From Chiloscyllium plagiosum (lineage: Eukaryota): a stretch of 53,246 nucleotides of DNA. The position numbers and the translations under genes were made by a program. Location of the stretch: positions 100,028,505-100,081,750 of the forward strand of contig NC_057718.1 in the NCBI RefSeq assembly GCF_004010195.1, written 5' to 3'. Within the stretch, counting starts at the first letter, position 1; every line of letters begins with the position of its first letter. Of the stretch, positions 1,948 through 50,560 are shown piece by piece. The notes beneath the pieces are model-generated. The model was not told where the DNA came from, ran no database searches, and saw only the letters and a list, made by a program, of their open reading frames with translations.

Positions 1948-2130
1948 TTGCTGGAAAAGCTCAGCAGGTCAGGCAGCACCTGTGGATAGAAAATCAGAGT
2001 TGATGTTTCAGGTCGAGTGACCCTTCCTCAGTACCCAAAACATTAACTCCGATTTCTCTCAACAGATACAGCCAGATCTGCTGAGCTTTTCCAGCAACCT
2101 CTGTTTCTGTTTCTGATCCGCAGTTCTTTC
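1948..2130. mobile_element. Penelope pLTR-derived inverted-repeat insert (subfamily C)
   Basis: ttgctggaaaagctcagcag and ctgctgagcttttccagcaa are inverted arms; minus strand reads ctgagga-agggtc actc gacct-gaaacatc (hammerhead-like). Confidence 0.75.
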
Positions 2131-3214
2131 GGCTCATATCAGAACTTTGTTTCCTTTATAAGTTTCAATTTCAAGGAACTCAGATTGATATCGTTCTCCC
2201 AAAGCATTTGAAGGAAGTGGATATCTTGGACAGCAATGTCTGAATTTCTGCGTTTAACCGCACATGTGAACTCTGGATGTTGCTGCCTGATTAGCATTTT
2301 AGCAATGGTAAGTGCTGATCGCCTCACAGTTCCTTTAACCATAAAATCCAGGTCAATAACATCTCAAAGGGAGGTAACATAATCTTGCTAGGATTTTAAT
2401 GAGAATAGCAGTAAAGAAGGAAGCTAATTGAGTGCCTCTGTAAAATTTAGAGAATTCTGCAATTCTCTGTGATCATTCTTACTCTCTAACCATTTACAGA
2501 TGATTTAAATCAATCACCAATTTAATATTGACCAAATAGCACAAGATTATTGAATCGGAGTTGAGTGTAAATTGTTACACAGCATCAGAAAATCAGGAAC
2601 GAAGGATATTGTTGACCCTCACAGTGGACTGCAGCCTGGGATTAAGATGACCCTGAATGTGTGTTGTGGATTTTCAAAAGCACCTGCTTTCTTCAGTTAA
2701 CTCTCACAACAGGCATTTCAAAATGATCAGAAACTCTTACCTGCTCCCACCCAGCCCCATGTAGTAAGATCACATTTTCAATCCCAAATGTCCTAGCTTC
2801 CTTGAACACTAATATTCTACTGAGTGCCCTGAGCAAAGCAAATGCTTCTGCAGAAAAGAGAATTCCGAATTCCAAATGCTTGATTAAATTTGCGTCATTG
2901 TCATAGTCTGAGTTAAAGTCTGTGAGGGCATATTTGAAATCTTTAGAACGGTGAGATAATGCAGCTGTGAGCTGGTTACTGAGCTTAAACCAGAGTTCAG
3001 GACAGCGGCAAATTATCCTGTAATGTGAAGACAAATGCTGGGAATATTGTCAAGGTGAATGCTGAAGGTATTTTTCTGTTTGCTATTTCTACAAAGACAT
3101 TGACCCACTTATAGGAGAACATCTATGTAAATTTGTTAAGCACATTATCCATTAACCCGCCAACAAGTCTAGGCTTCTGTTTCCACTCAACTTTAATAAG
3201 TTAACTCTTGCTAA

Positions 3215-3445
3215 TTGAAATAACTCCACAGAGGCCGGTATCCCATTGTCAAATTGCCCGTTATTTGCACATGAACAGTCCTTGGCTATAGTACTGCCCC
3301 ACTCAGAGTCAGATACCAGAGTGTCAGTAATTCAGACACTCTCCTTTTTATCTGTCAGCCAGGACTCCCTGATTAGACCAGTTTAACAGCCCCAGTCAGG
3401 GAACTCTGACTCTATAAGGTCCAGCTGGCTGACCTTATTACAATC
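3215..3445 (-). mobile_element. Solo LTR-like element, homologous to 44920-45373
   Basis: gaaataactccacagaggccggtatccc and tatctgtcagccagg..aacagcccc..tcagggaact are reverse complements of segments of the 44920 copy. Confidence 0.6.
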
Positions 3446-3482
3446 ACTGCACTAATGTCACATTTAGATTAATCAAGTACAA

Positions 3483-3678
3483 AGTGAGGACTGCAGATGC
3501 TGGAGATCAGAGCTGAAAATGTGTTGCTGGAAAAGCGCAGCAGGTCAGGCAGCATCCAAGGAGCAGGAGAATCGACGTTTCGGGATTCCTGAAGAAGGGG
3601 TTATGCCCTAAACGTCAATTCTCCTGTTCCTTGGATGCTGTCTGACCTGCTGCGCTTTTCCAGCAACACATTTTCAGC
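3483..3678. mobile_element. Penelope pLTR inverted-repeat insert (subfamily A) with 15-bp TSD
   Basis: About 75-bp inverted arms; attaatcaagtacaa duplicated at 3468-3482 and 3679-3693; hammerhead on + has GAAA changed to TAAA. Confidence 0.85.
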
Positions 3679-3737
3679 ATTAATCAAGTACAACCAACTA
3701 ACTTGCATGTCAATATGACTTCATTATCATTGTTGAT

Positions 3738-4068
3738 TCATAGAATCCCTCCAGTGCAGGAGCAGGCCATTTGGGTCCACACTAACCCTCTGAAGAGCGT
3801 CCCACCCAGACCTGCCTCCTACCCCTGTATCCCTACAATCCCCATGGCTACCCCACACATCCCTGGACACTATGAGTGATTTAGCATGGCCAATCCACCC
3901 TAACCTCCACATCTTTGGACGATGGAAGGAAACTGGAGCACCTGGAGGAACCCACATTGACACAGAGAGAATGTGCAAACTCCACACGGGCAGTCATCTG
4001 AGGGTGGAATCGAGCCCAGGTCCCTGGTACTGTGAGGCAGCAGTGCTATCCACTGAGCCACCGTGCTG
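3738..4068 (-). mobile_element. HE1 V-SINE
   Basis: Reverse complement of the HE1 pattern (gagaatgtgcaaactccacac..gtgaggcagcagtgct..ccactgagccacc). Confidence 0.9.
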
Positions 4069-4683
4069 CACTCATTGAATTATGGGAATAAATGCATGGG
4101 ATTTATCACCTCCATCCCTCATATTTTCCAGTTCATTCACCTCTAGTTGATCCATGCCACTATTTTAAACTCTCATCTATGTTTGCAAACATCTTCATGA
4201 CCTCCATCTTCCAGCCCTCCACCTCCAAACCCTCACCACTACCACTGCCAAGCGCTCCACCATAACTTTCAGCAGATTTGTGTAAGGACATAAGGGGTTG
4301 GGCAGGAGGTGGCAGTTGGCCCTTGAACCTGCACTGCTATTCCATACCATCATGACTGACCCAATCCCTGGTGTCAACTCATCATGGCACCAGCTCCTCA
4401 TAGTATTCAGCTCCTCAATATTTCAAACATCTATCCACTTTCTCTTTAAATACTTTTAAAGGCCATGTTGAGTTTTTGATCAATGGTTACCCTACCAGAT
4501 GTTGATAGTTGAGGATTCAGTGATGGTAATGCCAACGTGTAGTGGTTCGATTAAGATTGCTTTTATTTCAGTAAACCAGAATCCCAGATCATAATCTTGG
4601 GAAACATGGGTTCACATCAACATCAATAAAATTAACCAATAAAACGTCTTGTCTCCAAAGCAATGGTAGCCATGAAATTATTG

Positions 4684-4847
4684 GCATCTAGGGAACAGGA
4701 GAATCGACGTTTCGGGCATTAGCCCTTCTTCAGGCTAATGCCCGAAACGTCGATTCTCCTGTTCCCTAGATGCTGCCTGACCTGCTGCGCTTCTCCAGCA
4801 ACACATTTCCATCTCTGATCTCCAGCATCTGCAGACCTCATTTTCTC
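4684..4847. mobile_element. Penelope pLTR inverted-repeat insert (subfamily A)
   Basis: Perfect 40-bp inverted arms; gccatgaaattattg duplicated at 4669-4683 and 4848-4862. Confidence 0.85.
4703..4734 (-). ncRNA. Minimal type I hammerhead ribozyme core
   Basis: CUGAAGA-A-GGGC UAAU GCCC-GAAAC-GUC; conserved core intact, stem I flank truncated at the junction of the arms. Confidence 0.65.
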
Positions 4848-4865
4848 GCCATGAAATTATTGTTT

Positions 4866-4995
4866 GGCAAAAGTGAGGACTGCAGATGCTGGAAATCAGA
4901 GTTTAGATTCGAGCGGTGCTGGAAAAGCACAGCAGGTCAGGCAGCATCCAAGGAACAGGAAAATTGACATTTCGGGCAAAAACCCTTCATTAGGA
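4866..4995 (-). mobile_element. Penelope pLTR fragment (subfamily A)
   Basis: aaagtgaggactgcagatgctgg..ggcagcatccaaggaacagg; followed by a third atgaaattattg (4996-5007). Confidence 0.85.
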
Positions 4996-5245
4996 ATGAA
5001 ATTATTGTTGATTGATTGTGGTTCAAATGTTTACTTTAAGGGAAGGAAACTTGCAGTCCTTACCCAGTCTGGCCAAAATGACAGTCCAAGCACACAGCAA
5101 TATGGTTGACTCTTAACTGCCCTCTGAAATGGCCAAGCAAGTCCCTCAATTCAGGGCAGTTAGAGATGAGTGATAAATGCTCATCCAGGCCGTGATGCCC
5201 ACATTCCATGAAAGAATAAAACAAAATATGGATACAGGAGCTCAC

Positions 5246-5471
5246 AGTTCACAAAATGTGGCACTGGAAAAGCACAGCCGGTCAGGCAGCATCCGAGGAA
5301 CAGGAGAGTCAACGTTTCGAGCATAAGCCCTTCATCGGGAATGTCCTTCATCAGGAAGGGCTTATGCCAGAAACGTCGATTCTCCTGCTCCTCGGACGCT
5401 GCCTGATCTGCTGTGCTTTACCACACGTTATGACTCTGATCTCCAGCATTTGCAGTCCACACTTCCTCCTG
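5246..5471. mobile_element. Penelope pLTR inverted-repeat insert (subfamily A)
   Basis: Inverted arms; ggagctcac duplicated on both sides (about 5237-5245 and 5473-5481). Confidence 0.8.
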
Positions 5472-6151: not shown

Positions 6152-6345
6152 TCAAGATTAGAGTGGTGCTGGAAACGCACAGCAGGTCAGGCAGCATCCG
6201 AGGAGCAGGAAAACCGACGTTTTGGGCAAAAGCACTTCAGAAGGGCCTTTCCTGCTCCTCGGATGTTGTCTGACCTGCTGTGCATTTCCAGCACCTCTCT
6301 AGTCTTGACCCTAATCTCCAGCATCTGCAGTACCCACTTCCACTC
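6152..6345. mobile_element. Penelope pLTR inverted-repeat insert (subfamily A) with 13-bp TSD
   Basis: tgctccatttgta at 6139-6151 and 6346-6358; inverted arms. Confidence 0.85.
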
Positions 6346-6354
6346 TGCTCCATT

Positions 6355-7285: not shown

Positions 7286-7582
7286 AGTCATTGAAATGTT
7301 CAGTCAGTCATGATCACTGGATGGGATAATGGTGACTTCTGTTCCTTTGATCTGAACTGTGAAGATTCTCTTTTTTTTGACTGCCAGGGTTCCAGCACTA
7401 AGAGTAACATTGAAAATCTGACATTGGCATTGCTATTAGAAAGGATACAATGAATAGACAGAAAATATCTCATTTAGTATCCATTCCATTCAGGCAGTGA
7501 TCAATTTTCACCTTTTCCTTTGGTCTGTGTCTACATTCATGCAAATGTCTGAGGCTGGACCAAGGCAAACATGCATCCTGCA

Positions 7583-9425
7583 ACAACCCCAGCTCATCCT
7601 CTGGAGTCATCACTGAGTCCATCTCAATCCCAGCTCATTCCCTACAATAATCACTGAGTCCATATCAACCGCAGCTCATCCCCTGGAGTCATCACTGAGT
7701 CCATCTCAACCCTAGCTCATCTTACAATCAGCACTGAGTCCATTTCAACCCCAACTCATCCTACAATCATCACTGAGTTTGCCACAATCCAAGCTCATCC
7801 TGCAGTCATCACTGAGTCCATCTCAATCCCAGCTCATTCCCTACAATCATCACTGAGTCCATCCCAAACCAAGCTCATCCTACAGACATCACTGAATCCA
7901 TCTCAATCCCAGATCATCCTGCAATCATCACTGAATCAATCTCAATCCCAGTTCATCCTGCAATCATCACTGAATCTATCTCAATCCCAGCTCATCCCCT
8001 ACAATCATCGCTGAGTCCATTTCAATCCCAGCTCATCCTACAATCATCACTGAATCCATTTCAATCCAAGCTCATTCTACAATCAGCACTGGGTCCATCT
8101 CAACCCCAGCTCATCCTGCAATCATCACTGAATCCATCTCAATCCCAGCTCATCCCCTACAATCATCACTGAGTCCATCTCAATCCCAGCTCATTCTACA
8201 GTCATCACTGAGTCCATCTCAACCCCAGCTCATCCTACCATCATCACTGAATCCATCTCAATCCCAGCTCATCCCCTATAATCATCACTGAGTCCATCTC
8301 AATCCCAGCTCATTCTACAGTCATCACTGAGACCATCTCAACCCCAGCTCATCCTACAATCAGCACTGAGTCCAATCAATCCAAGCTCATCCTACAGTCA
8401 TTACTGAATCCATCTCAATCCCAGCACATCCCCTACAATTATCACTGAGTCCATCTCAACCCCAGCTCATCCGACAAGCATCACTGAACCCATCTCAATC
8501 CCAGCTCATCCTACAATCATCACTGAGTCAATCTCAATCCCAGCTCATTCTACAATCATTACTGAGTCCATCTCAATCCCATCTCATTCTACAGTCATCA
8601 CTGAATCCATCTCAACCCCAGCTCATCCTACAATCATCACTGAATCCATCTCAACCCCAGCTCATCCTACAATCATCATTGAATCCATTTCAATCCCAGC
8701 TCATCCTACAATCATTACTGAGTCCATCCCAATCCCAGCTCATTCTACAGTCATCACTGAGTCCATCTCAACCCCAGCTCATCCTACAATCAGCATTGAG
8801 CCCAATCAATCCAAGCTCATCCTACAGTCATCACTGAGTCTATCTCAATCCAAGCTCATCCTACAATCATCACTGAATCCATCTCAATCCCAGCTCATCC
8901 TACAATCAGCACTGAGTCCATCTCAACCCCAGCTCATCCTACAATCATCACTCAATCCATCTCAACCCCAGCTCATCTTGCAATCATCACTGAGTCCATC
9001 TCAATCCCAGCTCATCCTACAATAAGCACTGAGTCCATCTCAATCCCAGCTCATCCTACAATCATCACTCAATCCATCTCAATCCCAGCTCATCCTACAA
9101 TCAGCACTGAGTCAATCTCAACCCCAGCTCATCCTACAATAAGCACTGAGTCCATCTCAATCCCAGCTCATCCCCTACAATCATCACTGAATCCATCTCA
9201 ATCCCAGCTCATCCTACAATCATCACTGAGTCAATCTCAATCCCAGCCCATCCCCTACAATCAGCACTGAGTCCATCTCAACCCCAGCTCATCCTACAAT
9301 AAGCACTGAGTCCATCTCAATCCCAGCTCATCCCCTACAATCAGCACTGAATCCATCTCAATCCCTGCTCATCCTACAATCATCACTGAGTCCATCTCAA
9401 CCCCAGCTCATCCCGTACAATAATC
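7583..9425. repeat. Minisatellite, 39-bp unit (41-bp variant), about 46 copies
   Basis: Consensus atcccagctcatcctacaatcatcactgagtccatctca; the variant has cccctac. Confidence 0.95.
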
Positions 9426-10599: not shown

Positions 10600-10693
10600 A
10601 GAGTTAAAAATCACACAACACCAGGTTATAGTCCAACAGGTTTAATTGGAAGCACACTAGCTTTCGGAGCGACGCTCCTTCATCAGGTGATTG
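10600..10693 (-). mobile_element. Penelope pLTR fragment (subfamily B)
   Basis: aaaaatcacacaacaccaggttatagtccaacagg..; atgtaa on both flanks. Confidence 0.8.
10655..10689 (-). ncRNA. Minimal type I hammerhead ribozyme, intact
   Basis: CAC-CUGAUGA-A-GGAGC GUC GCUCC-GAAAGCUA-GUG: stem I CAC/GUG, 5-bp stem II, palindromic AGCU stem III, CUA cleavage triplet. Confidence 0.75.
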
Positions 10694-13221: not shown

Positions 13222-13340
13222 AAGGTAGAAGTGGATACTGCAGATGCTGGAGATTAGAGTTAAGATTAGAGTGGAGCTGGAAAGGCACAGCAGGTCAGGC
13301 AACATCTGAGGAGCAGGAAAATCAACATTTCGGGCAGAAG
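13222..13340 (-). mobile_element. Penelope pLTR fragment (subfamily A)
   Basis: ctgcagatgctggag..caggtcaggcaacatc; cctaatcaa duplicated on the flanks. Confidence 0.8.
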
Positions 13341-13500: not shown

Positions 13501-13630
13501 CTTTCTGATGAAGGGTTTTTGCCCAATATGTAAATTTTCCTGCTCCTCAGATGCTGCCTGACCTGCTGTGCTTTTCCAGCACCACACTCTCAACTCTAAT
13601 CTCCAGAATATGCAGTCCTCACTTCCACCT
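13501..13630 (+). mobile_element. Penelope pLTR fragment (subfamily A), degenerate hammerhead
   Basis: ctgatgaagggtttttgccc..gatgctgcctgacctgctgtgcttttccagcacc. Confidence 0.8.
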
Positions 13631-23905: not shown

Positions 23906-24249
23906 GTTAAACACTCTTCAAATGTCACAAAGCTACTTCTGAGCTCAAGGAATATTGTAGCATATGAAAATACATTCAAACAAGCAGAAAGAGTAGGCCA
24001 CACTGCCCTTTGACCCTATTTGACAAGCTTATGGCTGATCTGATTTTAATCTCAACTCTATATATCCCTCGATTATCTTGCATTTAAAAAATAGTACATG
24101 GGAACTTTTTTAAAACAAAAGAAAATGTAAAGTGGGTAGTGTATCCATTTAGGTAAAAACAATGACTGCAGATGCTGGAAACCAGATTCTGGATGAGTGG
24201 TGCTGGAAGAGCACAGCAATTCAGGCAGCATCCGAGGAGCAGCAAAATC

Positions 24250-24277
24250 GACGTTTCGGGCAAAAGCCCTTCATCAG
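24250..24277 (-). ncRNA. Minimal hammerhead ribozyme core, intact
   Basis: CUGAUGA-A-GGGC UUUU GCCC-GAAAC-GUC. Confidence 0.75.
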
Positions 24278-24397
24278 GAATAAAGGCAGAGAGCCTGAAG
24301 CATGGAGAGATAAGCTAGAGGAGGTCGGGGGTGGGGAGATTTCTCCCCACCCTCCTCTAGCTTATCTCTCCATGCTTCAGGCTCTCTGCCTTTATTC

Positions 24398-24425
24398 CTG
24401 ATGAAGGGCTTTTGCCCGAAACGTC
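24398..24425 (+). ncRNA. Minimal hammerhead ribozyme core, intact
   Basis: ctgatga a gggc tttt gccc gaaac gtc; palindromic ACGU stem III; GUC cleavage triplet at 24423-24425. Confidence 0.75.
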
Positions 24426-24488
24426 GATTTTGCTGCTCCTCGGATGCTGCCTGAACTGCTGTGCTCTTCCAGCACCACTAATCCAAAA

Positions 24489-24706: not shown

Positions 24707-25028
24707 GGTGCAGGTTTTGCAGTTCCTGCAGTGGCAGGGGAAGGTGCCAGGATGGGAGGGTGGGTTGTAGGGGGGCATGGACCTGACCAGGTAGTCATGG
24801 AGGGAATGGTCTTTGCGGAAGGTGGAAAGGGGTGGGGAAGGAAATATATCCCTGGTGGTGGGGTCTTTTTGGAGGTGGCGGAAATGTCGGCGGATGATTT
24901 TGTTTATGCGAAGGTTGGTAGGGTGGAAGGTGAGCACCAAAGGGGGTTCTGTCCTTGTTACAGTTGGAGGGGTGGGGTCTGAGGGCGGAGGTGCGGGATG
25001 TGGACGAGATGTGTTGGAGGGCATCTTT
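24707..25028 (-). mobile_element. Penelope-like element (Neptune-type) RT-EN linker
   Basis: PPLVLTFHPTNLRINKIIRRHFRHLQKDPTTRDIFPSPPL..LVRS..GTFPCHCRNCKTC (Cys-rich linker). Confidence 0.88.
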
Positions 25029-25099: not shown

Positions 25100-25470
25100 G
25101 AAATGATCAAAATCTATCTATCTCTGCCTTAAAAATATTTAAAGATTCCGCACCTAGTAGAGTAACGAAACATCAGGAAATGAACCTTCCAGCTCAGCGA
25201 GCAAACCTACGTCCAAAACCTCAACCTGAGCTACAAATCTTCTCAAAAACATTCTGCACCTTTTGAGGAAGGGATTCCAAAGACTCACAACCACTTGAGA
25301 GAAAATAATATGTTTCCTCATCTCCATCTTAAATGGTTGACCCTTTACTTTTAAACTCTGACCCCATGTTTCTGGATTCACCCACAAAAGGATAAAATGC
25401 TTTCAATATCCATGGGGTTAAAGCCCCTTAGGATCTGATATGTTTCAATTAAGTTGCCTCAGACTCTTCG
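25100..25470 (-). mobile_element. CR1 3' fragment with a nested Penelope pLTR piece (25156-25250, subfamily D)
   Basis: KVKGQPFKMEMRK..SQVVVSLWN; insert bounded by attc(c/t)gcacct at 25145-25155 and 25251-25261. Confidence 0.75.
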
Positions 25471-27139: not shown

Positions 27140-28056
27140 TCGCGGAAGGATATTACTAAACTGGAGAGGGATCAGAGAGCTGGATGCAAGATGGCGCCGG
27201 ATATGGTCGACACCTTGCGAGCACCTGCGTGCAGATCTAAATTTCCTATTTCCTACAATCATTCTACACTCTTTACATTTAATAGCATGCTTTTGAAAAT
27301 TACTGATAACTATGTTTTATCTGAACTCGCTGGTTTGAAGCTCCTAGAATATTGAATGGACTCACAAAGTCTTAGCATTCGCCTGTACCTGTGTTTTGGT
27401 TTTTGCTGTTGTTTGTCTATTATTTACTTCTCTATGCTACTTAACTCTGTAATCTGTCCTGTATTGCTCACAAGACAAAACTTTTCACTGTGCCTCAGTA
27501 CACGTGACAATAAATTCAATTCAATTCAACTCAATTCAATTCAATTCAGAAAAGATTGACCAGGATGTTGCCAGAAATGGAGAGTTTGTGTTCTTATAAC
27601 AGGCAGGAAAGACTGGGAGCTTTTTCACTGGAGTGTAGGAGATTAAGGCATGTAAAATCATGAGGGGCAGAGATGAGGTGAATAACAAGGCTCTTTTCTC
27701 TAGGGTGGGGAATTTCAAAACTAGGGGGCATATTTTTAAAGGGGTAAAAACAAGGGCTGCAGATGCTGGAAACCAGAGTAGCAAAGAGGCATATTTTTAA
27801 GGTGAGAGGAGAACATTTTAAAAAGGACATGAGGAGCAACTTTATTTACACAGAGAGTGGTTCGTCTGTGGCAGAGGAAGTGGTAAATGTAGGTACAGCT
27901 ACAACAGTCAAAAGAATTTTGGATACATTCATGAATGGGAAATGTTTGGAGGGATATGGGCCAGGAGCAGGCAGGTGGGACTAGTTTAGTTTGGGATTGT
28001 GGTCAGCATGGGCTGGTTGGACCGAAGGGTCTGTTTCCGAGCTGTAATACTCTATG
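27140..28056 (+). mobile_element. CR1 3' fragment hosting two nested insertions (27177-27545 and about 27740-27785)
   Basis: RKDITKLER resumes as cagaaaagattgaccaggatg; a short pLTR piece is bounded by duplicated ggcatatttttaa; CR1 tail at the end. Confidence 0.85.
27177..27545 (+). mobile_element. Short non-autonomous Rex1/Babar-like element
   Basis: 5' caagatggcgccg; 3' cttttcactgtgcctcagtacacgtgacaataaa plus (attca)n; tcaga duplicated at 27172-27176 and 27546-27550. Confidence 0.6.
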
Positions 28057-30457: not shown

Positions 30458-31282
30458 CAGCAAGTTTTGAGAAGATTTGTAGCTCAGGTTGAGGTTCTGG
30501 ATGTAGGTTTGCTAGCTGAGCTGGAAGCTTCTACGCAGAGCAGAGGAAAATCACCTATACTGTGTATTCAAAAATAAAGGGTACCCAATGAACACAGTTT
30601 GCTGATCTCTCAACAACAAACCCAAACAAGCAGACAAAACACGTCCAGAAACCGTAGCCACTCTCCCCTACATCAAAGTTATCTCAGAAATGACTGCCAG
30701 ACTACCCAGACCTCTTGGCATCATAGTAGCCCACAAACTCACCAACACACTAAAACAGCAGCTAATGAACTTGAAAGACCCTATACAGACAACAAGCAAA
30801 ATTAATGTTATTTACAAAATACCGTGCAAGGGCTGTAACAAACACTACATTGAACAAACAGGCATAAAACTAGCCACCAGGATACATGAACATCACCTAG
30901 CCACAAAACGACATAACCCTCTCTCACTAGTATCTTTACATAGAGATAAGGAAGGACACCACTTCGACTGGGACAACGCATCCATCCTAGGACAAGCCAA
31001 ACAGAGACACACACAAGAATTCCTAGAAGGGTGGCATTCCAACTAGAACTCTATCAACAAACACATTGCGTTAGACCCGATCTACCATCCCCGGAGAAAA
31101 AGAACAGGAAATGACATCACCACAGGAAATGACATCACCAACCCAAAGAAACCCAAACATATAAATAGAAAGCAGGAATCAGCAGCAGTGCTTCGCCTGG
31201 TGGCTCACCGAAGATGTTACCTAGTATGGTGACGAAACATCTGAAAATGAATCTTCCAGCTCAGCTAGCAAACCTACATCCA
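30458..31282 (+). mobile_element. Penelope/Poseidon-type element, 5'-truncated, with inverted pLTR piece and 11-bp TSD (subfamily D)
   Basis: ORF 30690-31046 NVIYKIPCKGCNKHYIEQTG..RIHEH..HHFDWDNASILG..FLEGWH (GIY-YIG); 30465-30528 is inverted pLTR; aaatctgattt at 30447-30457 and 31283-31293. Confidence 0.92.
31205..31244 (+). ncRNA. Hammerhead ribozyme remnant in pLTR (core mutated)
   Basis: UCA-CCGAAGA-U-GUUACC UAGUAU GGUGAC-GAAACAUC-UGA; U4 changed to C and the stem III G changed to A. Confidence 0.55.
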
Positions 31283-31964
31283 AAATCTGATTTTTTTAGA
31301 GGTGGACTCCGCAAAGCGTAAAATGCTTTATTTCCACCTCCAATTCTATTTTGATTTAGTCCCTACCCTCCCCTTCACTTCTTCAATCACAGAGGAATTG
31401 CCCGTGATGAGCAGGGTACTGCTTCCATTGGCCACCTGGGTATTTTCCCTTCCTGGTGAATGGAATACGAATAAAGTTTTCTGCACTCGATGTTTCTTCA
31501 ATGCGTCCTACACCTACACACACACGCCATGGCTGCTGGGAGAGGAAGTAAGCACCACTGCTGTTTGGTAGAAGTGTAGAGGATTTAAAAAAAAGATAAC
31601 CAGGAGATTAGAATCTCCACAGTTCAGGGACTGAAAAGAGCAATAAAAAAATACTTAAAAAGTAGCATGGGGAGGTCAACAAAAAGGAAAAAAGGAAGTA
31701 TAACCAGGAGAATCTCCTCCATTCAGCACAAAAAAGAAACTCTGGAATTTTATTGAATTTTATTTTTGTCATGACAATTAAGCCACCTGAGCTGCTTACA
31801 AGGCATCATCTTTCTTCTGCTTTATCCATTTGATGCAGATATCACTTCCTGGGCTGGCATTTAATGCCTGCCCCCAGTTGCCCTGGTGACTTCGTTGGTG
31901 ATGAGCCACTTTCTTGAACTGTCGCATTTCCTTGTGGGGCCGGTACAACGCAGTTCTGAAGGAA

Positions 31965-32185
31965 AAGTTCAGAAGTCACACGGCACCAGGTTATAGTGCA
32001 ACAGGTTTATTTGAAATCACAAGCTTTCGGAGCGCTGCTCCTTCCTCAGATGAAGTGAGAAGCGCACAGACACAGAATTCTCTCTCATTTCACCCGATGA
32101 AGGGGCAGCGCTCCGAAAGCTTGTGATTTCAAATATATACTGGTGACATGTGACTTCTGCCCCAGTCCAATAAAGGCACCTCCAC
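31965..32185. mobile_element. Penelope pLTR inverted-repeat insert (subfamily B) with 12-bp TSD
   Basis: gttctgaaggaa at 31953-31964 and 32186-32197; hammerhead-like cores on both arms. Confidence 0.88.
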
Positions 32186-32533: not shown

Positions 32534-33383
32534 TGTTATCGACCGGGGAAGATCAAATTCCCCCCTCAAAATATTTTAAGGTAGCTTAGACCCTAATCTT
32601 TTCTTATTTAGGCAGATGTGATTGGATATTCCAGGTGTAATGCAGCTGGTCAAACCACTCAGCTTTAAGCAAAACAGAATTTATTTAAATACTATAATTG
32701 AAACAAAGGCAGGAAAGTGGAATTTAGAGTAATGTAACTATTAGAAAACTTAACCGACCTGATACAGTAACTTAACTAACTAACTGTTCCAATACAGCAA
32801 CTTCCTCCAATCACACTCATTGGCAAAAAGATAAATTCAAACATAGATTCTTACTGGCAGGCAGAATATCATCCAGAGGGAGATTTCAGAGAAAGTCAGA
32901 GGAATTCTTTACTGAAGCTTGCATCTCTCAAAGACTCTCACCTTGTGATGCTACAGCTAAAACAAACTAGATGAAAACTATACTGGGACAACTGGCGTCT
33001 CCCCTTCCATTTTTAAACCAGACTCTTTGGCACCTCTGCCTTTACAACCTCTCTTCAAAATAACCAAGGACAAAATTACTTTATTTCAAGTTAAAAATCA
33101 CACAACACCAGGTTATAGTCCAACAGGTTTGTTTGGAAGCACAAGCTTTCAGAGCACTGCTCCTTCATCAGGTAGCTGTGGAGCAGGATCATAAGACACA
33201 CAATTTATAGCAAAAGATCACAGTGTCATGCAACTGAAGTGATATATTGAACAAACCTAGATTGCTGTTAAGTCTTTCATATTTTAGAATGGGTTGCAGG
33301 TTCGGTTCATTAATATGCAAATCCCAAAACCTCTTTCAAGTCACACTCTCAAGATAAGATTTTAAAGTGACAGCATTGACACA
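32534..33383 (-). mobile_element. Solo LTR (TG..CA, 4-bp TSD AGAG) with a nested pLTR fragment
   Basis: tgttatcgac..cattgacaca; agag at 32530-32533 and 33384-33387; tttatt at about 32680 is AATAAA on minus. Confidence 0.7.
33089..33358 (-). mobile_element. Penelope pLTR fragment (subfamily B)
   Basis: aaaaatcacacaacaccagg..gctccttcatcagg; TATAAA on minus about 30 nt upstream of the hammerhead. Confidence 0.8.
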
Positions 33384-36038: not shown

Positions 36039-37165
36039 CATTAAGTGTATCAGTCCTGTTATGATTTGCTTTCCCAAAATGCAGCACCTCACTATTATCT
36101 GAATTAAACTCCATCTGTCACTTCTCAGCCCATTGGCCCATCTAATCAAGATCCTGTTGTAATCTGAGGGAACCCTCTTTGCTGCCCTCCAATTTTGGTG
36201 TCATCTGCAAACTTACTAACTATACCTCCTATACTCACATCCAATTCATTTTTATAAATGATGAAAAGCAGTAGATCCAGCACCGATCCTTGTGGCACTC
36301 CACTGGTCACAGCCCCCCAGTCTGAAAAACAACCCTCCACCACCACCCTCTGTCTTCTACCTTTGAGCCAGTTCTGTATCCAAATGGTTAGTTCTCCTTG
36401 TATTCTATGAGATCTAACCTTGCTAACCAGTGTCCCATGGGGAACCTTGTCGAACGCCTTACTGAAGTCCATATAGGTCACATCTACTGCTCTGCCCTCA
36501 TCAATCTTCTTTGTTACTTCTTCAAAAAAGTCAATCAAGTTTGTGAGACATGATTTCTCACGCACAAAGCCATGTTGACTATCCTGAATCAGTCCTTGCC
36601 TTTCCAAATACATGTGCATCCTGTCCCTCAGGATTCCCTCCACATACTTGCCCACCACCAAGGTCAGGCTCACCAGCCTATAATTCCCTGGCTTGTCTTT
36701 ACCACCCTTCTTAAACAGTGGCACGACGTTTGCCAACCTCCAGTCTTCCGGCACCTCACCTGTGACTATCGATGATACAAATATCTCAGCAAGATGCCCA
36801 GCGATCACTTCTCTAGCTTCCCACAGAGTTCTCGGGTACACCTGATCAGGTCCTGGGGATTTATCCACCTTTAACCGTTTCAAGACATCCAGCACTTCCT
36901 CCTCTATAGTATGGACATTTTGCAAGATGTCACCATCTACTTCTCTATATCTTCCATATCCTTTTCCACAGTAAATACTGATGTAAAATATTCATTTAGT
37001 ATCTCCCCCATTTTCTGTGGCTCCACACAAAGGCCGCCTTGCTGATCTTTGAGGGGCCCTATTCTCTCCCTAGTTACCCTTTTGTCCTTAATATATCTAT
37101 AAAAACCCTTTGGATTCCCCTTAATTTATTTGCCAAAGCTATCTCATGTCCCTGTTTTGCCCTCC

Positions 37166-37795
37166 NNNNNNNNNNNNNNNNNNNNNNNNNNNNNNNNNNN
37201 NNNNNNNNNNNNNNNNNNNNNNNNNNNNNNNNNNNNNNNNNNNNNNNNNNNNNNNNNNNNNNNNNNNNNNNNNNNNNNNNNNNNNNNNNNNNNNNNNNNN
37301 NNNNNNNNNNNNNNNNNNNNNNNNNNNNNNNNNNNNNNNNNNNNNNNNNNNNNNNNNNNNNNNNNNNNNNNNNNNNNNNNNNNNNNNNNNNNNNNNNNNN
37401 NNNNNNNNNNNNNNNNNNNNNNNNNNNNNNNNNNNNNNNNNNNNNNNNNNNNNNNNNNNNNNNNNNNNNNNNNNNNNNNNNNNNNNNNNNNNNNNNNNNN
37501 NNNNNNNNNNNNNNNNNNNNNNNNNNNNNNNNNNNNNNNNNNNNNNNNNNNNNNNNNNNNNNNNNNNNNNNNNNNNNNNNNNNNNNNNNNNNNNNNNNNN
37601 NNNNNNNNNNNNNNNNNNNNNNNNNNNNNNNNNNNNNNNNNNNNNNNNNNNNNNNNNNNNNNNNNNNNNNNNNNNNNNNNNNNNNNNNNNNNNNNNNNNN
37701 NNNNNNNNNNNNNNNNNNNNNNNNNNNNNNNNNNNNNNNNNNNNNNNNNNNNNNNNNNNNNNNNNNNNNNNNNNNNNNNNNNNNNNNNNNNNNNN
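37166..37795. other. Assembly gap (630 N)
   Basis: N run within the CR1 endonuclease region. Confidence 1.
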
Positions 37796-38169
37796 TTCCT
37801 GTTGCATTTGTATCCTGGAACATTAAGCTGCCAGTCCTGAGCCATGTTTCTGTAATTGCTATGATATCCCAGTCCCATGTTCCTAACCATGCCTTGAGTT
37901 CATCTGCCTTCCCTGTTAGGCCCCTTGCATTGAACTAAATGCAGTTTAATTTATTAGTCCTACCTTGTCCCTGCCTGCCCTGACTGTTTGACTCACTTCT
38001 GTTCTCAGCTGTACCCGTCTCAGACCGATCTCTTTCCTCACTATCTCCCTGGGTCCCATCCCCCCACCTTACTAGTTTAAATCCTCCCAAGCAGTTCTTG
38101 CAAATTTCCCTGCCAGTATATTAGTCCCTTCCAATTTAGATGCAATCCGTCCTTCTTGTACAGGTCTTG

Positions 38170-40030: not shown

Positions 40031-41019
40031 ACAAACTAGAGGAGGCCCAGCCAATGTCCCATTTCATTTTTTTTTTAGTTAAAAATATTTTGATTTATCA
40101 TTCAGCCCTTTTACGAAACTGGCGGCAAATATTTGTGTAATCGCTCTTGTACCAATGCCCCGCCATTGTCAAAGGTGCTACACAAATGCAAGTGGTTGTT
40201 GCAGTGCTCGGAAGGTGCCCATCAGGCAGTTTTGCCGGCAGTCAAAACGAGGGAGTGTGGAATCTATCACAAACACCCGGTATTCCACATTCCTGCTCTG
40301 ACTGGTACAGGATAACAGAGAATGGGAAAAGAATATGTTTAGGGGGTGATTATTCTGAAATGCTTTAAAGATGGGCAGAGATTTCAAGACGAGAGACACA
40401 TTCCCATTCAGCGATGTACGTGCAGCCTGCTACATGTTTTAATTCAATGACTGTCAAGTATGTTTCCAAACATTTCTTGTTAAATATTTTGCAGAAACTC
40501 TCAAACTCACTCGTTGTTCTTGAGGTTAATTTGAGAAAAAGAGTGTAGCAGGATTGACATGAGTCTAGTCCTTTCAGTCAGCTTCCTCTGGCCTTTTACT
40601 GACTGGAGAGCATCCCCTAGCAACGCTGGATCCAACCCGCAGCTAATGTGGTGCTGATTCCAACTCCACATTGAGATGGTGGGAGGTGTTACACAGTCAT
40701 ACTGGTGTCATTTCAGTGTTTCTTTATGATACTCAGTGGGTAATGTTCAGGAGTGTCTTCAGCTCATCCCCAATGGTGGGGACACAATATACACCAAACA
40801 ACAAGAAGATCTACAATGTGCATTAATATAGTGCCTACAGTACTGTACAGTACATCAACCATGAGGTGCTCGATAGGAGCTTTACCAAATGTGACTTGAC
40901 TCTGGGCTGTGGTACGGCAATATCAGGGCAGGTCAGCAGAGGCGAAGCCAAAGAGGGAGGCTTTCGGAGTTTTAGACCATCTCTCACATCGAAAGGATTG
41001 ATGTGGGAACTGAGCAAGA

Positions 41020-41800
41020 GTGAACCAGGTGTGACTCTGCAGCTGAACCAGGAGTGATCCTGGAACTGAATCAGGAGTGACCCTGGAACTGAACCAGGAG
41101 TGACCCTGGAACTGAATCAGGAGTGAACCTGGAACTGAACCAGGAGTGAACCTGGAACTGAACCAGGAACTGAACCAGGAGTGAACCTGGAACTGAACCA
41201 GGTGTGAACCAGGTGTGCCTCTGCAGCTGAACCAGGAGTGATACTGGAACTGAACCAGGAATAAACCTGGAACTGAACCAGGAGTGAACCTGGATCTGAA
41301 CCAGGAGTGACCCTGGAACTGAACCAGGAATAAACCTGGAACTGAACCAGGAGTGAACCTGGAACTGAACCAGATGTGAACCTGGAACTGAACCAGGAGT
41401 GATCCTGGAACTGAACCAGGGGTGACCCTGGAACTGAACCAGGAGTGAACCTGGAACTGAACCAGGAGTGACCCTGGAACTGAACCAGGAATAAACCTGG
41501 AACTGAACCAGGAGTGACCCTGGAACTGAACCAGGAGTGACCCTGGAACTGAACCAGGAGTGATCCTGCAACTGAACCAGGAGTGAACCTGGAACTGAAC
41601 CAGGGGTGACCCTGGAACTGAACCAGGAGTGAACCTGGAACTGAACCAGGAGTGACCCTGGAACTGAACCAGGAATAAACCTGGAACTGAACCAGGAGTG
41701 ACCCTGGAACTGAACCAGGAGTGAACCAAGAGTGATCCTGCAACTGAACCAGGAGTGACCCTGGAACTGCACCTGGAATGACCCTGGAACTGAACCAGGC
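41020..41800. repeat. Minisatellite, 23-bp unit, about 33 copies
   Basis: cctggaactgaaccagg plus a 6-nt linker (agtgac/agtgaa/aataaa); period 23 measured at 41461, 41484 and 41507. Confidence 0.95.
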
Positions 41801-42079
41801 GTGCATTTTAAAAAACGTTAAATTCGCAAGACCTCTTGTCAGAATGTTTTCCAACTGTACCACAGGGTCATTGCGCTGAGTGGGGCTTAGTGGGTTATAA
41901 TTAAGGAGAGGGACATGCACACAATGGACCAAGTGGCATCTTCAAAGTTTATCCATTCAGTGTGATGCTCTCACCAGTAAGCCAACAGAATTTCTTAACA
42001 TGTTTTGTTTCAGTTTCACACCTAGACTCCATCAACATTATAAACTCAGGAACTTGCCTTATTCCCATTGTTGGCCGTG

Positions 42080-42859: not shown

Positions 42860-43385
42860 AGTGGATCGAGGCCATTCGGCCCCCCCGACACCGACCTATC
42901 CACATTGATCCCATTTGCCCTGTAACCTTGAATGTTATGACACTTCAACCGCTCGTCCATGTACCCTTTACCTTCGCAGGCTGTGGATTCCAGATTCTCA
43001 CCACCCTCCAGATGAAAAGATTTTCCTCAAGTCCTCTTAATCCGTCCTTGAAATTATGCCCCCCACCAACCCCCCTGGCTGACCCTTCCAAAGGGAGACC
43101 AGCTGCATTCTATCCACCCAATCCAGGCCTTTTATAATCTTAAAAATCACGCAACGCCAGATTATAGTCCAACACATTCATTTGGAAGTACAAGCTTTCC
43201 TGCCCCACCTGATGAAGGAGCAGTGCTCCGAAAGCTAGTGCTTCCAAATAAACCTGTTGGACTATAACCAAGTGTTGTGTGATTATTTAACGTTGTCCAC
43301 CCCAGTCCAACACCGGTTCCTCCACATCATGGTTTTCATAATCTTATATACCTCAATCAGGTCCTCCCTACGCCTTCTCTGCCCT
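42860..43385 (-). mobile_element. Degenerate CR1 3' end with a nested pLTR inverted insert (43140-43333, subfamily B)
   Basis: ttccagattctcaccaccctc..; insert flanked by ttt(t/c)ataatctta. Confidence 0.75.
43206..43240 (+). ncRNA. Minimal type I hammerhead ribozyme, intact
   Basis: CAC-CUGAUGA-A-GGAGC AGU GCUCC-GAAAGCUA-GUG. Confidence 0.75.
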
Positions 43386-44122
43386 ATTGACTCCATTCTC
43401 TCTGCCCCAGATGCGACCCGGGACTTTTTGATTTCCTACCATTTTCCTGTCTGAATTTCAGATTTCCAGCAGCTGCAGTGTTTTTGCCTTTGGTCTACCC
43501 TCATCATTTTTACTGCTGTTTATATCTGCAGCCTTCAGTAGAGATTCATCTGTTAAAAGGAGAAACACGCTCAGACAAACAGGAATCAATTTTCTCCTTC
43601 AGGGACAAAATTCGAATTGGCGCTCCCTATGCCTGGCATCAATCTCCAGGAAGGTCACCTTTTAACTTCACTCAAACAGCTCTGATTCTCAATGCAGGTA
43701 CAAAAGGCAACATGCACTGAATCTCAGGGACTGACACGGTATCAGAAATAAAACATCAAACTGAACAAACAGATGGTGCTGTAATCCCTACAGAAAGTAA
43801 TGTTTGTTCAGAAGAGTTCAAAAGCATCTTTGTGTCCGATAAAGTGCGGGCAACAGAATTAAGCGTCTCTCCCACGTTAGCCTTAATACAGCCTTGATCT
43901 AAAAGCAGCTCAGTTGCTGATGTGAACATGCTTTTTTTTGAATACCTGAGACAGTACCTCAACTTTTCAGACTCCTGCCTAATGTACTTGAGCTGCAGAA
44001 TCAATCCCAGGGTCTATCTTTTCCCATGAATTTTCCAATTCTCAGATGAAAGCAGGATTTAGACTGAAGCTCGAACAAACCATTGGCACAGCTTAGAATT
44101 TGGCAAGGGAGGTGGTTTAAAG

Positions 44123-44200
44123 TTGAAACGAAAACAGAAATTGCTGGAAAAGGTCTGGCAGCAGCTGTGGAGAGAGATCAGAGTTAAGGTTTTTGGGTCA
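44123..44200 (-). mobile_element. Penelope pLTR fragment (subfamily C)
   Basis: acagaaattgctggaaaa..ggcagcagctgtggagagagatcagagttaaggttt matches 1948-2010. Confidence 0.6.
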
Positions 44201-45419: not shown

Positions 45420-46545
45420 GAAACATACCGTCATACAGCACAGAAAAAGATTCCTCAGCCCAGCTCATCCTTGCTGACTAGGTTTCCCCAACTAAACTAG
45501 AGCCATTTGCTTGCATTTGGCCCATATCCCTTTAAACCTTTCCTATCCATGTACCTGTCCAAATGTCTTTTCAATGTTGTCTTTGTACCAGCTTCCACCA
45601 CTTCTTCTGGCAGCTCGTTCCATACACATACCACCTTCTGCATGAAAACATTACCCCTCAGGTCTCTTTTAAATGTTTCCTCTCTCACCTTTAACCTATG
45701 CCCTCTCACTTTAAACTCTCTTACCCTACGACCTTGGCTATTCATCTTACTTATGCCCCTCATGATTTTATAAATCTCTACAAGGTTACCCCTTACATTC
45801 AAGGGAAAAGCATCCCAGACTATCCAGCCTCTCCCTATAACGCTAACCCACCCCAATCCCCCAGTCTCAGTAACATCCTTATAAATATTTTCTGTACCGT
45901 TTCCAATTGCCTAACATCCTTCCTATAGCAGGGCGACCAGAATCGCACGCAGTATTCCTAAGGTAGCCTCACCAATGTTCTTTACAGCCACAGCATGACA
46001 TTACAACTCCAATACTCAGTGTACTGACCAATGGAGGCAAGTGTGCCAAACATCTTCTACCTGTGACTCCGCTTTCAAGGAGCTTTGTACCTGCACCCCT
46101 CTGTTTAACAGCACTCCCCAGGGCCCTATCATTAACTGTGTAAGTCCTGCCCTGGTTTGTCTTACCAAAATGCAACACATCATATTTATCTATTCCCGCC
46201 TCAGGCGACTGACTGTGTGGAGTTTGCACATTCTCCCAGTGTCTGCGTGGGTTTCCTCCGGGTGCTCCGGTTTCCTCCCACAGTCCAAAGATGTGCAGGT
46301 CAGGTGAATTGACCATGCTAAATTGCCCATAGTGTTAGGTAAGGGGTAGATGTAGGGGTATGGGTGGGTTGCGCTTCGGCGGGGCACGTGGACTTGTTGG
46401 GCCGAAGGGCCTGTTTCCACACTGTAAGTAATCTAATCTAATCCATCTGCCCACTGGCCCATCTCACCAATAAACCATTGTGCTCTGAGGTAACCTGTTT
46501 CACTGTTCACTACTCCACCTATTCGTCCACAGACGTACTAACCAT
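45420..46545 (-). mobile_element. CR1 fragment interrupted by HE1
   Basis: RGHRLKVRE..QKVVCVWNELP; DKYDVLHFGKTNQGRTY; tttatct resumes as ccatctgccc after the SINE. Confidence 0.88.
46192..46443 (+). mobile_element. HE1 V-SINE, 5'-truncated, aatct tail
   Basis: Starts within the B box (attcccgcctcagg); full V domain. Confidence 0.92.
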
Positions 46546-47189: not shown

Positions 47190-47394
47190 CAGTTAGAAGT
47201 CACATGACAACAGATTATAGTGCAACAGGTTTGTTTGAAATCACACAAGCTTTCAGAGCGCTGCTCCTTCATCAGCTGAACAGAGGCAATGCTCTTAAAG
47301 TTTGTGTGATTTCAAATAAACCTGTTAGACTATAACATGATGTTGTGTGACTTCTGACTTTGTCCATCCCAGTCCAAAAGTGGCACCTCCTCAT
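47190..47394. mobile_element. Penelope pLTR inverted-repeat insert (subfamily B) with 9-bp TSD
   Basis: cacccaaac at 47181-47189 and 47395-47403. Confidence 0.85.
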
Positions 47395-47689: not shown

Positions 47690-48420
47690 AGAACATAAGA
47701 ACATAGAACCTCAGAGATAGGATCTGGGGTAGGCCAGTTGGCTTCTTGATTTGTCTTCCCATTCATTAAGATTGATCACATCATGGCTTAAACCACTTTC
47801 TTGTTTACCCTCCATATCCTTTGATTCCCAGTCAATCAAGAAATTCACCAAAGATCCTTAGACAGCACCTTCCAAATCCATGACAATTTTCATCTGGAAG
47901 GAAAAGCCCAGTAGATACATGGGAAATACCACCCCCTCCATGATTCTCCTAAAGCCAGTCACCATCCTGATTTGGAAACATGTCGCCGTTCCTTCAGTGT
48001 CACTGGGTCAGAATCCTGGAATTCCCCCCCCACTAAGGGCATTGTGGGTCTACCTACAGTACATGGACTGCAGTGGTTCAAGAAGGCAGCTCACCCCCAC
48101 CTTCTCAAGGGCAGCTAGGGATGGGCAATAAATGCTGGGCCCAGCTAGTAACGCCCACATCCAGTGAGTGAATTTTTTAAAAATTGATCAAACTCAGCTG
48201 TAAAAATATTTAATGATCCCATCTCTGCTGCTCTGTAGGAGCAGAATTCCACAGACCCACAACCCTCCGAGAGAGGAAAAGTTCTCTTCGTCTCCATCCT
48301 TTTAGCAACGACTTGATCAGGTTTGCTCAGGATCATCTATGCTTCATTAAGATCAGCTCTCATCATTCCAAAATTCCAATGGATAAAGGTACAACTTGTC
48401 CCACCTATCCTGGTAAGGTA
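47690..48420 (-). mobile_element. Degenerate CR1 3' end interrupted by an L2/Crack-like fragment
   Basis: gaacataagaacatagaa tail; gaattccacagacccacaaccctc..; split at about 47845-48180. Confidence 0.7.
47845..48178 (+). mobile_element. L2/Crack-like LINE 3' end
   Basis: gacagcaccttccaaa..cgccgttccttcagtgtcactgggtc..ggactgcagtggttcaagaaggcagctca..agggatgggcaataaatgctgg. Confidence 0.8.
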
Positions 48421-48615
48421 AACTTTGTCCCCAAGGTTGAATGCTCCAAGTAAACTTGCATGATTCTTTCAAACAGCTAGCACAGACACCGTGGGCTGAA
48501 TGTCCTCCCACTATGTTGAGTCACACGAGGCATTTCAGGTAGATCAGGAGTCAAGAAGGTAACGGACAAAATGGGCTGCAGGAGTCAATCAGTGTAAGAA
48601 GCCAAACCATTCCCT

Positions 48616-48957
48616 TAGAATCCCTACAGCGTAGAGCCAAGTCGTTCAGCCAATCTAGTCCACACCAACCCTCTGAAGAGCATCCCATTCAGAACCACCC
48701 TACCCCTGCATTTTCCATGGCTAACCCACCAAGCCTGCACATTCCTGAACACTATGGGGCAAATTACGCATGGCCAACCCACCCTAACCTGTACATCTTT
48801 GTGATTGTAAGAGGAAATCAGAGCACCCGGAGGAAACCCACGCAGACATGGGGAGAATGTGCAATCTCCACACAGACAGTCGTCCGAGTCTGGAATCGAA
48901 CCCGGGTTCCTGGCGCTGTGAGGCTGCACGGCTAACCACTGAGCCACTGTGCTACCC
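48616..48957 (-). mobile_element. HE1 V-SINE
   Basis: Reverse complement of the HE1 pattern. Confidence 0.9.
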
Positions 48958-49496
48958 TTAGCTTTACGCCGGATGGAAAATGGATTTTTACAGCAGGATG
49001 AGAGTTAGACGTACACCTTCCCCTCATCTCCAGACGTGATTTCTTACATTAACAGGAACCGTTTTGTAGCAAATTCTGATCAGGGATTGCACTCAGTGCC
49101 ACTCAATTTTAATTTGTTTTTATAATCCACTCGAGGAGGCAGAGCGTGTTCACCATTACAACCGCAGTGTAGCAGCTTTCAAGTGAAGGGGCTGTCATGT
49201 ATATTTAACACAAATGTATGTACTTCCACTCTGTTGGAATTTGAGGGGAGTTTCAGCGCCTGAAACACGATGTAACAAACATTTCAGGGATTTAATACTT
49301 TTTAAACGAAACTTTGAGGATTTTAACCATTGAAGAAGTACAGTGTTACATTTGATTTAAGTCCCAAGATTTCTCTCAGTTGTCACCATACTATCATTTA
49401 AGATACTATCTGCGTAATAACTGATATTATACAAGAACCAGGAGCAACAGTCCCTTGAACAGCATTTGTTGCCATTGCCTGATTGCCCTTGAGCAC

Positions 49497-49813
49497 CACG
49501 GTGGCTCAGTGGTTAGCACTGCTGCCTCACAGCACCAAGGGCCCTGGTTCAAGTCCAGCCTTGGGTGACTCTCCGTGTGGAGTTTGCACATTCTCCCTGT
49601 GTCTGTGTGGGTTTCCTCTGGGTGCACTCGTTCCCTCCCACAATCCAAAGATGTGCAGGCTAGGTGAATTGGCCGTGCTAAATTGCCCGTAGAGTTAGTT
49701 ACATTAGTCAGAGGTAAATATAGGGTAGGGGAATGGGTCTGGGTGAGTTAGTCTTCAGAGGGTTGGTGTGGACCTGTTGGGTCAAATGGCCTGTTTCCAC
49801 ACTGTAGGGAATC
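49497..49813 (+). mobile_element. HE1 V-SINE
   Basis: A/B boxes, V domain, tail. Confidence 0.92.
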
Positions 49814-49824
49814 TTAACAATATG

Positions 49825-50560
49825 GTGGTGGTGAGTTGTCATCTGGAGCTGCTGCAGTGTTTGGGATGTAGGGACATCCACAAAGCTGTTAGGGAGGCAT
49901 TCTGAACCAGCAACACTGAAAGAACAGGGACATCTTTCCAAGTCAAGAGGGGAAGGTCCCTTGGAGGTGGTGGGTATTCCCGCGTATCTGCTGCCCTTAT
50001 CCTTCTGAGTCAGAACTCACATGGCACCTGGTTATAGTTTATTTGACCTTCACCTGATGAAGGAGCAGCGCTCCAAAAGCTTGTGATTTCAAATAAACCT
50101 GTTGGACTATAACCTGGTGTCATGTGACTTCTGATTTTGCCCACCCCAGTCCAACACCAGCACCCCCACATCTTATCCTTCTACATGGTACGTGTTGCTG
50201 GTTTGGAAACTCCTGTCAGAGGAGCCTCGGGGAGTTGCTACAACGCATGTTGTAGATGGTACACCCTGTTATCACTACGGTGAAGGGAATGAATGTTGAA
50301 GGTGTTGGATATGGTGCCAATCGAGCGGGGTCTGCTTTGTCCTCAATGGCGTCGAGATTCTTCAGTGTTGTTGGAGCTGCACCCATCCAGGAAAATGGGG
50401 AGTATTCCATCAAACTCCTGACTTGTAGATGGTGGAGGAGGCTTTGGGGAGTCAAGAGGGGAGTTACTCGCTGCCGGATTCCCAGCCTCTGACCTGCTCT
50501 TGTAGCCACAGTGTTTATATGGCCTGTTTAGCTCTGCTTCTGACAAGTGAATCTGGAGAA
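49825..50560 (-). mobile_element. L2/Crack-like (CR1-group) LINE, RT C-terminal region
   Basis: AGQRLGI..LLTPQSL..QVRSLMEYSPFSWMGAAPTTLKNLDAIEDKA (ORF 50216-50509). Confidence 0.8.
50007..50171. mobile_element. Penelope pLTR inverted-repeat insert (subfamily B) with 11-bp TSD
   Basis: cttatccttct at 49996-50006 and 50172-50182; hammerhead has GAAA changed to AAAA. Confidence 0.88.

Follow-up and report, generated by a model that had tools for sequence, protein, structure and literature searches.

The window analysed here, a stretch of 53,246 nucleotides from Chiloscyllium plagiosum (NCBI RefSeq assembly GCF_004010195.1, contig NC_057718.1, positions 100,028,505 to 100,081,750, forward strand), carries short palindromic inserts derived from Penelope-like elements (PLEs). 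The original prediction had described at least ten of these as two inverted pseudo-long terminal repeat (pLTR) arms with no open reading frame (ORF). Inverted arms were recovered at nine of the ten predicted positions by self-BLAST of the window, and both arms were found at all ten, including 50007, by searches with profiles made from window copies (family A, 127 nt; family B, 125 nt). All ten proved to be head-to-head pairs of PLE 3' ends, with folding z-scores of -2.8 to -38 over their 20 strands. They fell into at least two unrelated pLTR families, A and B, with several subfamilies; a third family, C, was represented by one single-arm copy and one long two-arm copy. Overall, the inserts are real and abundant and are mostly explained by the known insertion architecture of PLEs, and they appear to be neither retrozymes nor defined by ribozyme cleavage. 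The hairpins are listed below under the predicted start positions that serve as their names. Inner ends are given left then right, numbered from the predicted hammerhead cut and each bounded by the junction or by the target-site duplication (TSD), for which matching bases over length are shown.

1948: 1951..2138, hairpin, family A (divergent subfamily); right arm tailed; inner ends about -33 and -12; TSD 1940-1950/2139-2149, 10/11
3483: 3483..3678, hairpin, family A; left arm tailed; inner ends -11 and -32; TSD 3468-3482/3679-3693, 15/15
4684: 4684..4847, young hairpin, family A; right arm tailed; inner ends -29 and -19 with a 2-nt overlap; TSD 4667-4683/4846-4862, 16/17
5246: 5250..5471, hairpin, family A; right arm tailed; left arm to -34, right arm from -23; TSD 5237-5249/5472-5484, 12/13
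6152: 6152..6345, hairpin, family A; right arm tailed; arms meet at -24/-23; TSD 6139-6151/6346-6358, 13/13
24153: 24155..24488, hairpin, family A; left arm tailed; arms meet at about -89/-87; right end lost in a gap of Ns
31965: 31965..32185, hairpin, family B; right arm tailed; inner ends up to -58 and -44, central 27 nt unassignable; TSD 31953-31964/32186-32197, 12/12
43140: 43143..43333, hairpin, family B; right arm tailed; inner ends -8 and -35 ± 3 (-32 to -38); TSD 43130-43142/43334-43346, 12/13
47190: 47190..47394, hairpin, family B; right arm tailed; inner ends -34 and -23, 2-nt insertion common to both arms; TSD 47181-47189/47395-47403, 9/9
50007: 50007..50171, hairpin, family B; right arm tailed; short left arm ends at about +7, right arm starts at -35/-36; TSD 49996-50006/50172-50182, 11/11

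Nine of the ten lacked an ORF as predicted, the doubtful case being hairpin 24153, which was symmetric at 143 of 146 positions and adjoined the gap at 24489-24706. Because no TSD was found for it, the gap abuts it and a Penelope linker ORF lies behind that gap, this hairpin may be the end of a longer insertion and may not be ORF-less. Besides the ten hairpins, the window held eight single-arm copies and one long, ORF-bearing two-arm copy (825 bp), and 16 short inserts accounted for 2685 bp, or 5.1% of its length. The hairpins are thus about half of a continuum of insertion products, and their description as the dominant product was overstated.

TSDs of 9 to 17 bp flanked nine of the ten hairpins, confirming the long duplications predicted for most inserts. 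In a ±15 search of 391 random pairs with tandem repeats included, a score of at least 9 was reached by 6.4%; in a ±6 search of 1000 pairs with tandem repeats masked, the same score was reached by 0.2% and a score of at least 11 by none. As element bounds were set from the TSDs, only the null rate of this narrower control is independent. The hairpins are independent insertion events and not copies of one hairpin. No junction was common to two of the ten, the closest of the 45 pairs differing at 8 of 24 bases, and the shared junctions that the original prediction had associated with a family were therefore absent from the window. Both arms of every insert belonged to one family, the partner arm being the nearest match for 10 of the 20 arms, and the subfamily varied from insert to insert.

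Contigs of two other organisms (B and C) ran from unique flank into hairpins 1948, 5246 and 6152, which are therefore shared with these organisms. At hairpin 4684, the contigs of organisms B and C ceased to match at 4668 with 37-40 letters remaining; this hairpin is probably absent from them, and the empty site would join 4668 to 4848, with the remainder entering the older single-arm copy at 4865. Within 4667-5009, hairpin 4684 was inserted in the left TSD copy of that older insert, so that the target motif is present three times. A late arrival would fit both this position and its arms, which were identical at 39 of 39 positions. Hairpins therefore appear to have formed both before and after the split of these species.

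Inner and outer ends of the arms

A minimal hammerhead descriptor matched the window nine times, compared with a mean of 0.025 in 200 shuffles, and seven of the nine matches fell in six of the ten hairpins. All matches read toward the outer end of the arm, which places the hairpins head to head with their 3' ends outside. An Rfam scan of the window at E<=5 returned 15 matches, none of them a hammerhead; its microRNA matches lay below gathering scores and reflect the hairpins themselves. A metagenome pattern scan yielded two GC-rich matches sharing just the 22-mer, which were judged to be chance.

As predicted, the arms met near the hammerhead core, with both arms ending between -38 and +7 of the predicted cut in eight of the ten hairpins. 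A set of 30 arm ends was then considered, from which ORF pieces 23179-23873 (no 3' end) and 24707-25028 (gap) and weak matches at 25869, 43457, 44141 and 23121 were excluded. Ten ends lay 1-10 nt upstream of the first core base, ten within the core, seven further upstream and three downstream of the cut. None was located within 6 nt of the predicted cut, and 27 of the 30 arms continued past it, indicating that the template was uncleaved there. The original prediction of a recurrent, ribozyme-defined abortive integration product therefore held with respect to recurrence and abortive character but not with respect to cleavage: the hammerhead marks the position of the ends, and its cleavage plays no visible part. 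Tested against truncation at a constant hazard, with 29 of the 30 ends (the tail-only copy 27751 being excluded), the clustering gave scan p values of 0.014, 0.0014 and 0.0009 for windows of 10, 15 and 32 nt, respectively. An RNA 5' end just before the core would be the simplest cause of so many cDNAs stopping there. Self-complementarity of stem II (-12/-20) was rejected as the feature setting the junctions, being seen in none of the ten hairpins, and a 3' splice site was rejected since no consistent AG was found by eye at the pile-up.

Two hairpin centres carried traces of template jumping, namely a re-copied antisense piece of about 10 nt in hairpin 5246 (5345-5354) and, in hairpin 6152 (6240-6248), a right arm that had lost the 3' half of the core between two T-runs. 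The distance from cut to cut between paired motifs was 43-176 nt; values of 43, 43, 46 and 46 nt were observed in hairpins 1948, 3483, 4684 and 43140 (four of the eight holding both cut sites), which may be chance.

At the outer ends, a tail of about 35 nt was present on exactly one arm in all nine scorable hairpins and in the long two-arm copy at 30460, a pattern with a probability of 0.5^9 = 0.002 over the nine hairpins if the arms chose independently. The tail-less end fell, by eye, within about 3 nt of one site per family in seven of nine hairpins, and the same site was used by three single-arm copies, at 524 (529..1112), 10594 (10600..10691) and 33089. Given this recurrence, the tail-less end behaves as a start site. 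Furthermore, the tail-less arm extended further upstream than the tailed arm in six of the ten hairpins and in copy 30460, two hairpins showing the opposite and two being tied. The one-sided tail and the end positions, like the anatomy, TSDs and unique junctions of the hairpins, are direct observations.

On either strand of a hairpin, the antisense arm precedes the sense arm. In folding predictions, a 12-nt region centred on the cut formed pairs with the other arm with a mean probability of 0.79-1.00 in 15 of the 18 strand cases holding the cut site; the exceptions included 6152 minus (0.31) and 50007 plus (0.00), in which the partner arm was without that stretch. Since the cut region would be paired with the other arm, hairpin transcripts would be double-stranded RNA (dsRNA) and not working ribozymes, in agreement with the dsRNA capacity originally proposed for read-through transcripts. 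In a weak test on one single-cell polyA RNA run, of which about 2% was read, there was no depth on unique flanks and there were no pile-ups of read beginnings or ends. Among its 7262 reads, 98% continued into unlike sequence, and mismatches were A>G 100 and T>C 107, compared with C>T 137 and G>A 105. Given paralogous reads and a fragmented library, this run is uninformative on cleavage or editing. The 15 joints listed, out of about 10,000, marked switches of subfamily, and none was a hairpin centre.

Single-arm and long copies

The remaining Penelope copies in the window are as follows.

529..1112, plus strand: 5'-truncated single-arm copy, family A end without tail; GIY-YIG C-terminal ORF piece, 3' region and decayed hammerhead; 7-bp repeat (weak)
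4865..4995, minus strand: tailed single-arm copy, family A; 5' end -30 to -33; TSD 4851-4864/4996-5009, 14/14
10600..10691, minus strand: tail-less single-arm copy, family B; 5' end -34 to -37; hammerhead descriptor intact; TSD 8/9
13224..13340, minus strand: tailed single-arm copy, family A; 5' end -17 to -19; TSD 11/12
13507..13630, plus strand: tailed single-arm copy, family A; 5' end -26 to -31; TSD 9/10
24707..25028, minus strand: Penelope reverse transcriptase (RT)-thumb/linker ORF piece on the far side of the gap; carries a CX4CXXC motif and is 80% identical to a GIY-YIG-bearing shark protein
25156..25251, plus strand: tailed single-arm copy, family C; 5' end about -19 to -23
27742..27787, minus strand: tail-only copy, 46 bp, family A; TSD 14/15
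30460..31283, plus strand: long two-arm copy, family C; inverted 67-bp tailed end (30465-30531), then a 5'-truncated direct copy with a GIY-YIG-type ORF and no tail; 11-bp TSD
33089..33360, minus strand: longer tail-less single-arm copy, family B; reaches about -218; hammerhead descriptor intact; no TSD found

The Penelope origin proposed originally was borne out by the hammerhead matches and by copy 529-1112, which ties the family A end to a PLE RT/GIY-YIG ORF. This copy showed 67-76% identity in tblastn to proteins P0001 and P0003; P0001 matched GIY-YIG with an E value of 2.5e-4 and 21.7 bits, just below the cut-off of 22.6, and P0002 matched RVT_1. The Neptune/Nematis clade is marked by a CX2-5CXXC linker between RT and endonuclease; the motif was present both in 24707-25028 and in P0001, a protein matched by copy 529 as well. 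The ORF of copy 30460 was 78-84% identical to shark proteins, some with RT domains, and this copy is an example within the window of the published inverted-end architecture of PLEs. More generally, the Penelope ORF pieces matched Chiloscyllium, Stegostoma and Hemiscyllium proteins with 68-84% identity among the best matches; two short ORF pieces had no match in Pfam. From its hammerhead, tail and architecture, family B is provisionally assigned to the endonuclease-positive (EN+) PLEs.

A decayed Penelope linker/endonuclease fragment without a recognisable 3' end was also seen at 23179-23873 (minus strand), 300 bp from hairpin 24153, and weak pLTR-like stubs were present at 25838-25945, 43457-43479 and 44141-44200, the first of which seems to begin just before a decayed hammerhead core.

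A proposed insertion from two primers and its alternatives

The favoured explanation, to which we assign a probability of roughly 0.6, is that the hairpins are independent dead-end insertions by an EN+ PLE, primed from both target nicks at two RT start sites on uncleaved RNA. The enzyme would nick both target strands 9-17 bp apart, as suggested by the TSDs, and each nick would prime reverse transcription on uncleaved element RNA, which may begin just before the hammerhead. Use of the outer start site would give the arm with the tail of about 35 nt and use of the inner site the tail-less arm, after which the two cDNA ends would be joined, often over 2-4 nt of microhomology. Extension from one nick only would yield a single-arm copy, and a longer template the classical copy with an inverted end plus ORF. 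In LINE-1 twin priming, both target nicks likewise prime cDNA and the two cDNAs join by microhomology; however, LINE-1 inverts non-overlapping parts of its RNA, whereas here the same segment is copied twice, resulting in a hairpin.

The architecture itself has been published, and what we infer here is the two-primer model. The accessible text on complex insertions of EN+ PLEs describes an inverted 5'-truncated copy and a one-sided tail of 30-40 bp (Arkhipova 2013, PMC3846280; Craig 2021, PMC8557442). The present inserts share with these the head-to-head inverted ends, the tail on one arm, the heavy 5' truncation and similar TSDs (8-10 bp in those accounts, 9-17 bp here), but differ in that their arms are mostly 40-130 bp without an ORF, in their density of one insertion per about 2.8 kb, and in the pile-up of inner ends just upstream of and within the hammerhead core. 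In available sections of the in vitro study of PAc Poseidon from the green anole (Frangieh 2024, PMC11167929), the PLE protein nicks and extends both target strands and is predicted to dimerise, two internal RT start sites delimit the tail, and insertion is normal with a dead hammerhead, no RNA reads ending at the cut. Two start sites bracketing the tail and extension of both strands fit the ends observed here; those sections do not derive head-to-head products from this activity, and the linker of family A appears to be of Neptune rather than Poseidon type. The minimal type I hammerheads of metazoan PLEs, as far as set out in the consulted portion of Cervera and De la Pena 2014 (PMC4209133), resemble those in the window in their core boxes, extra base before helix II and palindromic minimal helix III. 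That portion also describes pairs of motifs on opposite strands, separated by 100-700 bp, and numerous solitary ones belonging to truncated PLEs; the paired motifs here are closer, and arm ends and TSDs were mapped here but not in that portion.

Several points weigh against the two-primer model. The analysis covers one window and 30 hand-entered ends, the arms of one hairpin are non-independent, and three window widths were tried. Cross-alignments halted near -32 even in long copies, because upstream sequence diverges between subfamilies, and bounds from TSDs and junctions were therefore used; the ends of the right arm of 43140 and of both arms of 31965 are nevertheless uncertain by 6-25 nt. 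Two short arms (the left arms of 1948 and 4684) start inside the usual tail-less site. Within the window, the longest family B copy (33089-33360) stops before any ORF, leaving that family without an ORF link, and no RNA 5' end was seen at the pile-up in the single weak RNA run. Arm similarity could also stem from later gene conversion, and the in vitro PLE work, in its available sections, concerns the lizard Poseidon element and not the families found here (PMC11167929).

It was also possible that a single cDNA, running from the tail to the RNA 5' end, self-primed, copied back and was cut at the base of the tail, its centre then being trimmed asymmetrically, a scheme that resembles the self-priming proposed in Arkhipova 2013. 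Asymmetric sequence loss does occur at palindrome centres. In seven of the ten hairpins one arm ended at -29 to -38 and the other was shorter, the arms share private variants (as in 4684, noted above), and junction palindromes are read as self-priming in the available part of Arkhipova 2013 (PMC3846280). However, the tail-less arm holds sequence that the tailed arm lacks and is therefore no plain fold-back copy of a tailed cDNA unless the centre was later trimmed, and the youngest-looking hairpin, 4684, is already asymmetric (-29/-19). Furthermore, copy 30460 pairs its 67-bp tailed arm with a tail-less arm of about 750 bp, and single-arm copies use the tail-less site without a partner. Fold-back synthesis is therefore considered unlikely, although it deserves a hearing.

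A non-autonomous monomer of about 130 nt, starting just before the hammerhead, transcribed from many stubs and mobilised in trans by PLE proteins, with hairpins arising at insertion, would produce the same pile-up of 5' ends. In keeping with this, the loose-end consensus of 590 and 782 paralogous contigs faded to A/T-rich sequence about 13 nt before 5355, near -36 (agreement only 0.44). The ends, however, are spread between -29 and -38 and are found in several subfamilies belonging to two families, neither an added promoter nor a unique 5' sequence was observed, and long and short copies form a continuum, making such a monomer distinctly improbable.

The proposal that the hairpin is a self-propagating retrozyme-like family, or that its ends are set by hammerhead cleavage, has little left to commend it and is already largely refuted in this window. 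Intact hammerhead descriptors were present in six of the ten hairpins, and the accessible text of a preprint derives animal retrozymes from PLE pLTRs (Li 2026, 10.64898/2026.07.22.740005). As far as that text and that of Cervera 2020 (PMC7229834) go, animal non-LTR (non-long terminal repeat) retrozymes consist of direct repeats in tandem, each unit bearing a hammerhead, and give circular RNA on processing; the inserts resemble them in their type I hammerhead, lack of coding capacity and PLE connection. In contrast, the inserts are inverted pairs whose fold buries the ribozyme, with the cut site covered by the opposite arm in all but three strand cases. Their junctions all differ and so do their subfamilies, every pair among the profile matches was inverted with no tandem direct units, and no arm ended within 6 nt of the cut. 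Assembly artefacts in the form of fold-back chimeras can hardly account for the set, since only 24153 is 98% symmetric and abuts a gap, whereas each of the other nine is flanked by a TSD and has an asymmetric centre, with arm identities of 82-100%, and three are entered from unique flank by contigs of organisms B and C.

As an element class, the inserts are the short extreme of a published architecture, and the remaining interest is mechanistic, as the findings bear on how PLEs make inverted ends and one-sided tails. Neither shark PLE hairpins lacking an ORF nor an accumulation of ends ahead of the hammerhead was the subject of any paper found in a search of the literature, although most subscription papers, supplements, Repbase and Dfam were outside the search and may hold such families. 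It is conceivable, and suggested here tentatively, that shark PLEs as a rule employ a short RNA whose 5' end coincides with the upstream edge of the hammerhead, with a dimeric enzyme priming both nicks at its two start sites, so that one event writes a ready-made inverted repeat; the stubs would then be a genome-wide fossil record of the PLE integration intermediate and would provide host transcripts with a large, lasting supply of dsRNA hairpins. If located in introns, the inserts would supply many editable or silencing hairpins.

Other sequences in the window

Of the 205 non-repeat frames, the 150 longest gave only three weak Pfam matches, and none of these was a credible host exon. Two tandem-repeat arrays, at about 7560-9270 and 40920-41940, yielded long repetitive open frames. 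Fragments of CR1-like LINEs were recognised by eye from translations at 16449-17156, 19633-20208, 35722-37934 and 45497-46334, and weak U6 matches at 35301-35402 and 35718-35819, under the gathering score and within a duplicated CR1-like LINE stretch, were judged to be chance. Two inverted SINE copies, of the HE1 type and unrelated to Penelope, were located about 230 bp apart at 17837-18575 and were 80% identical.

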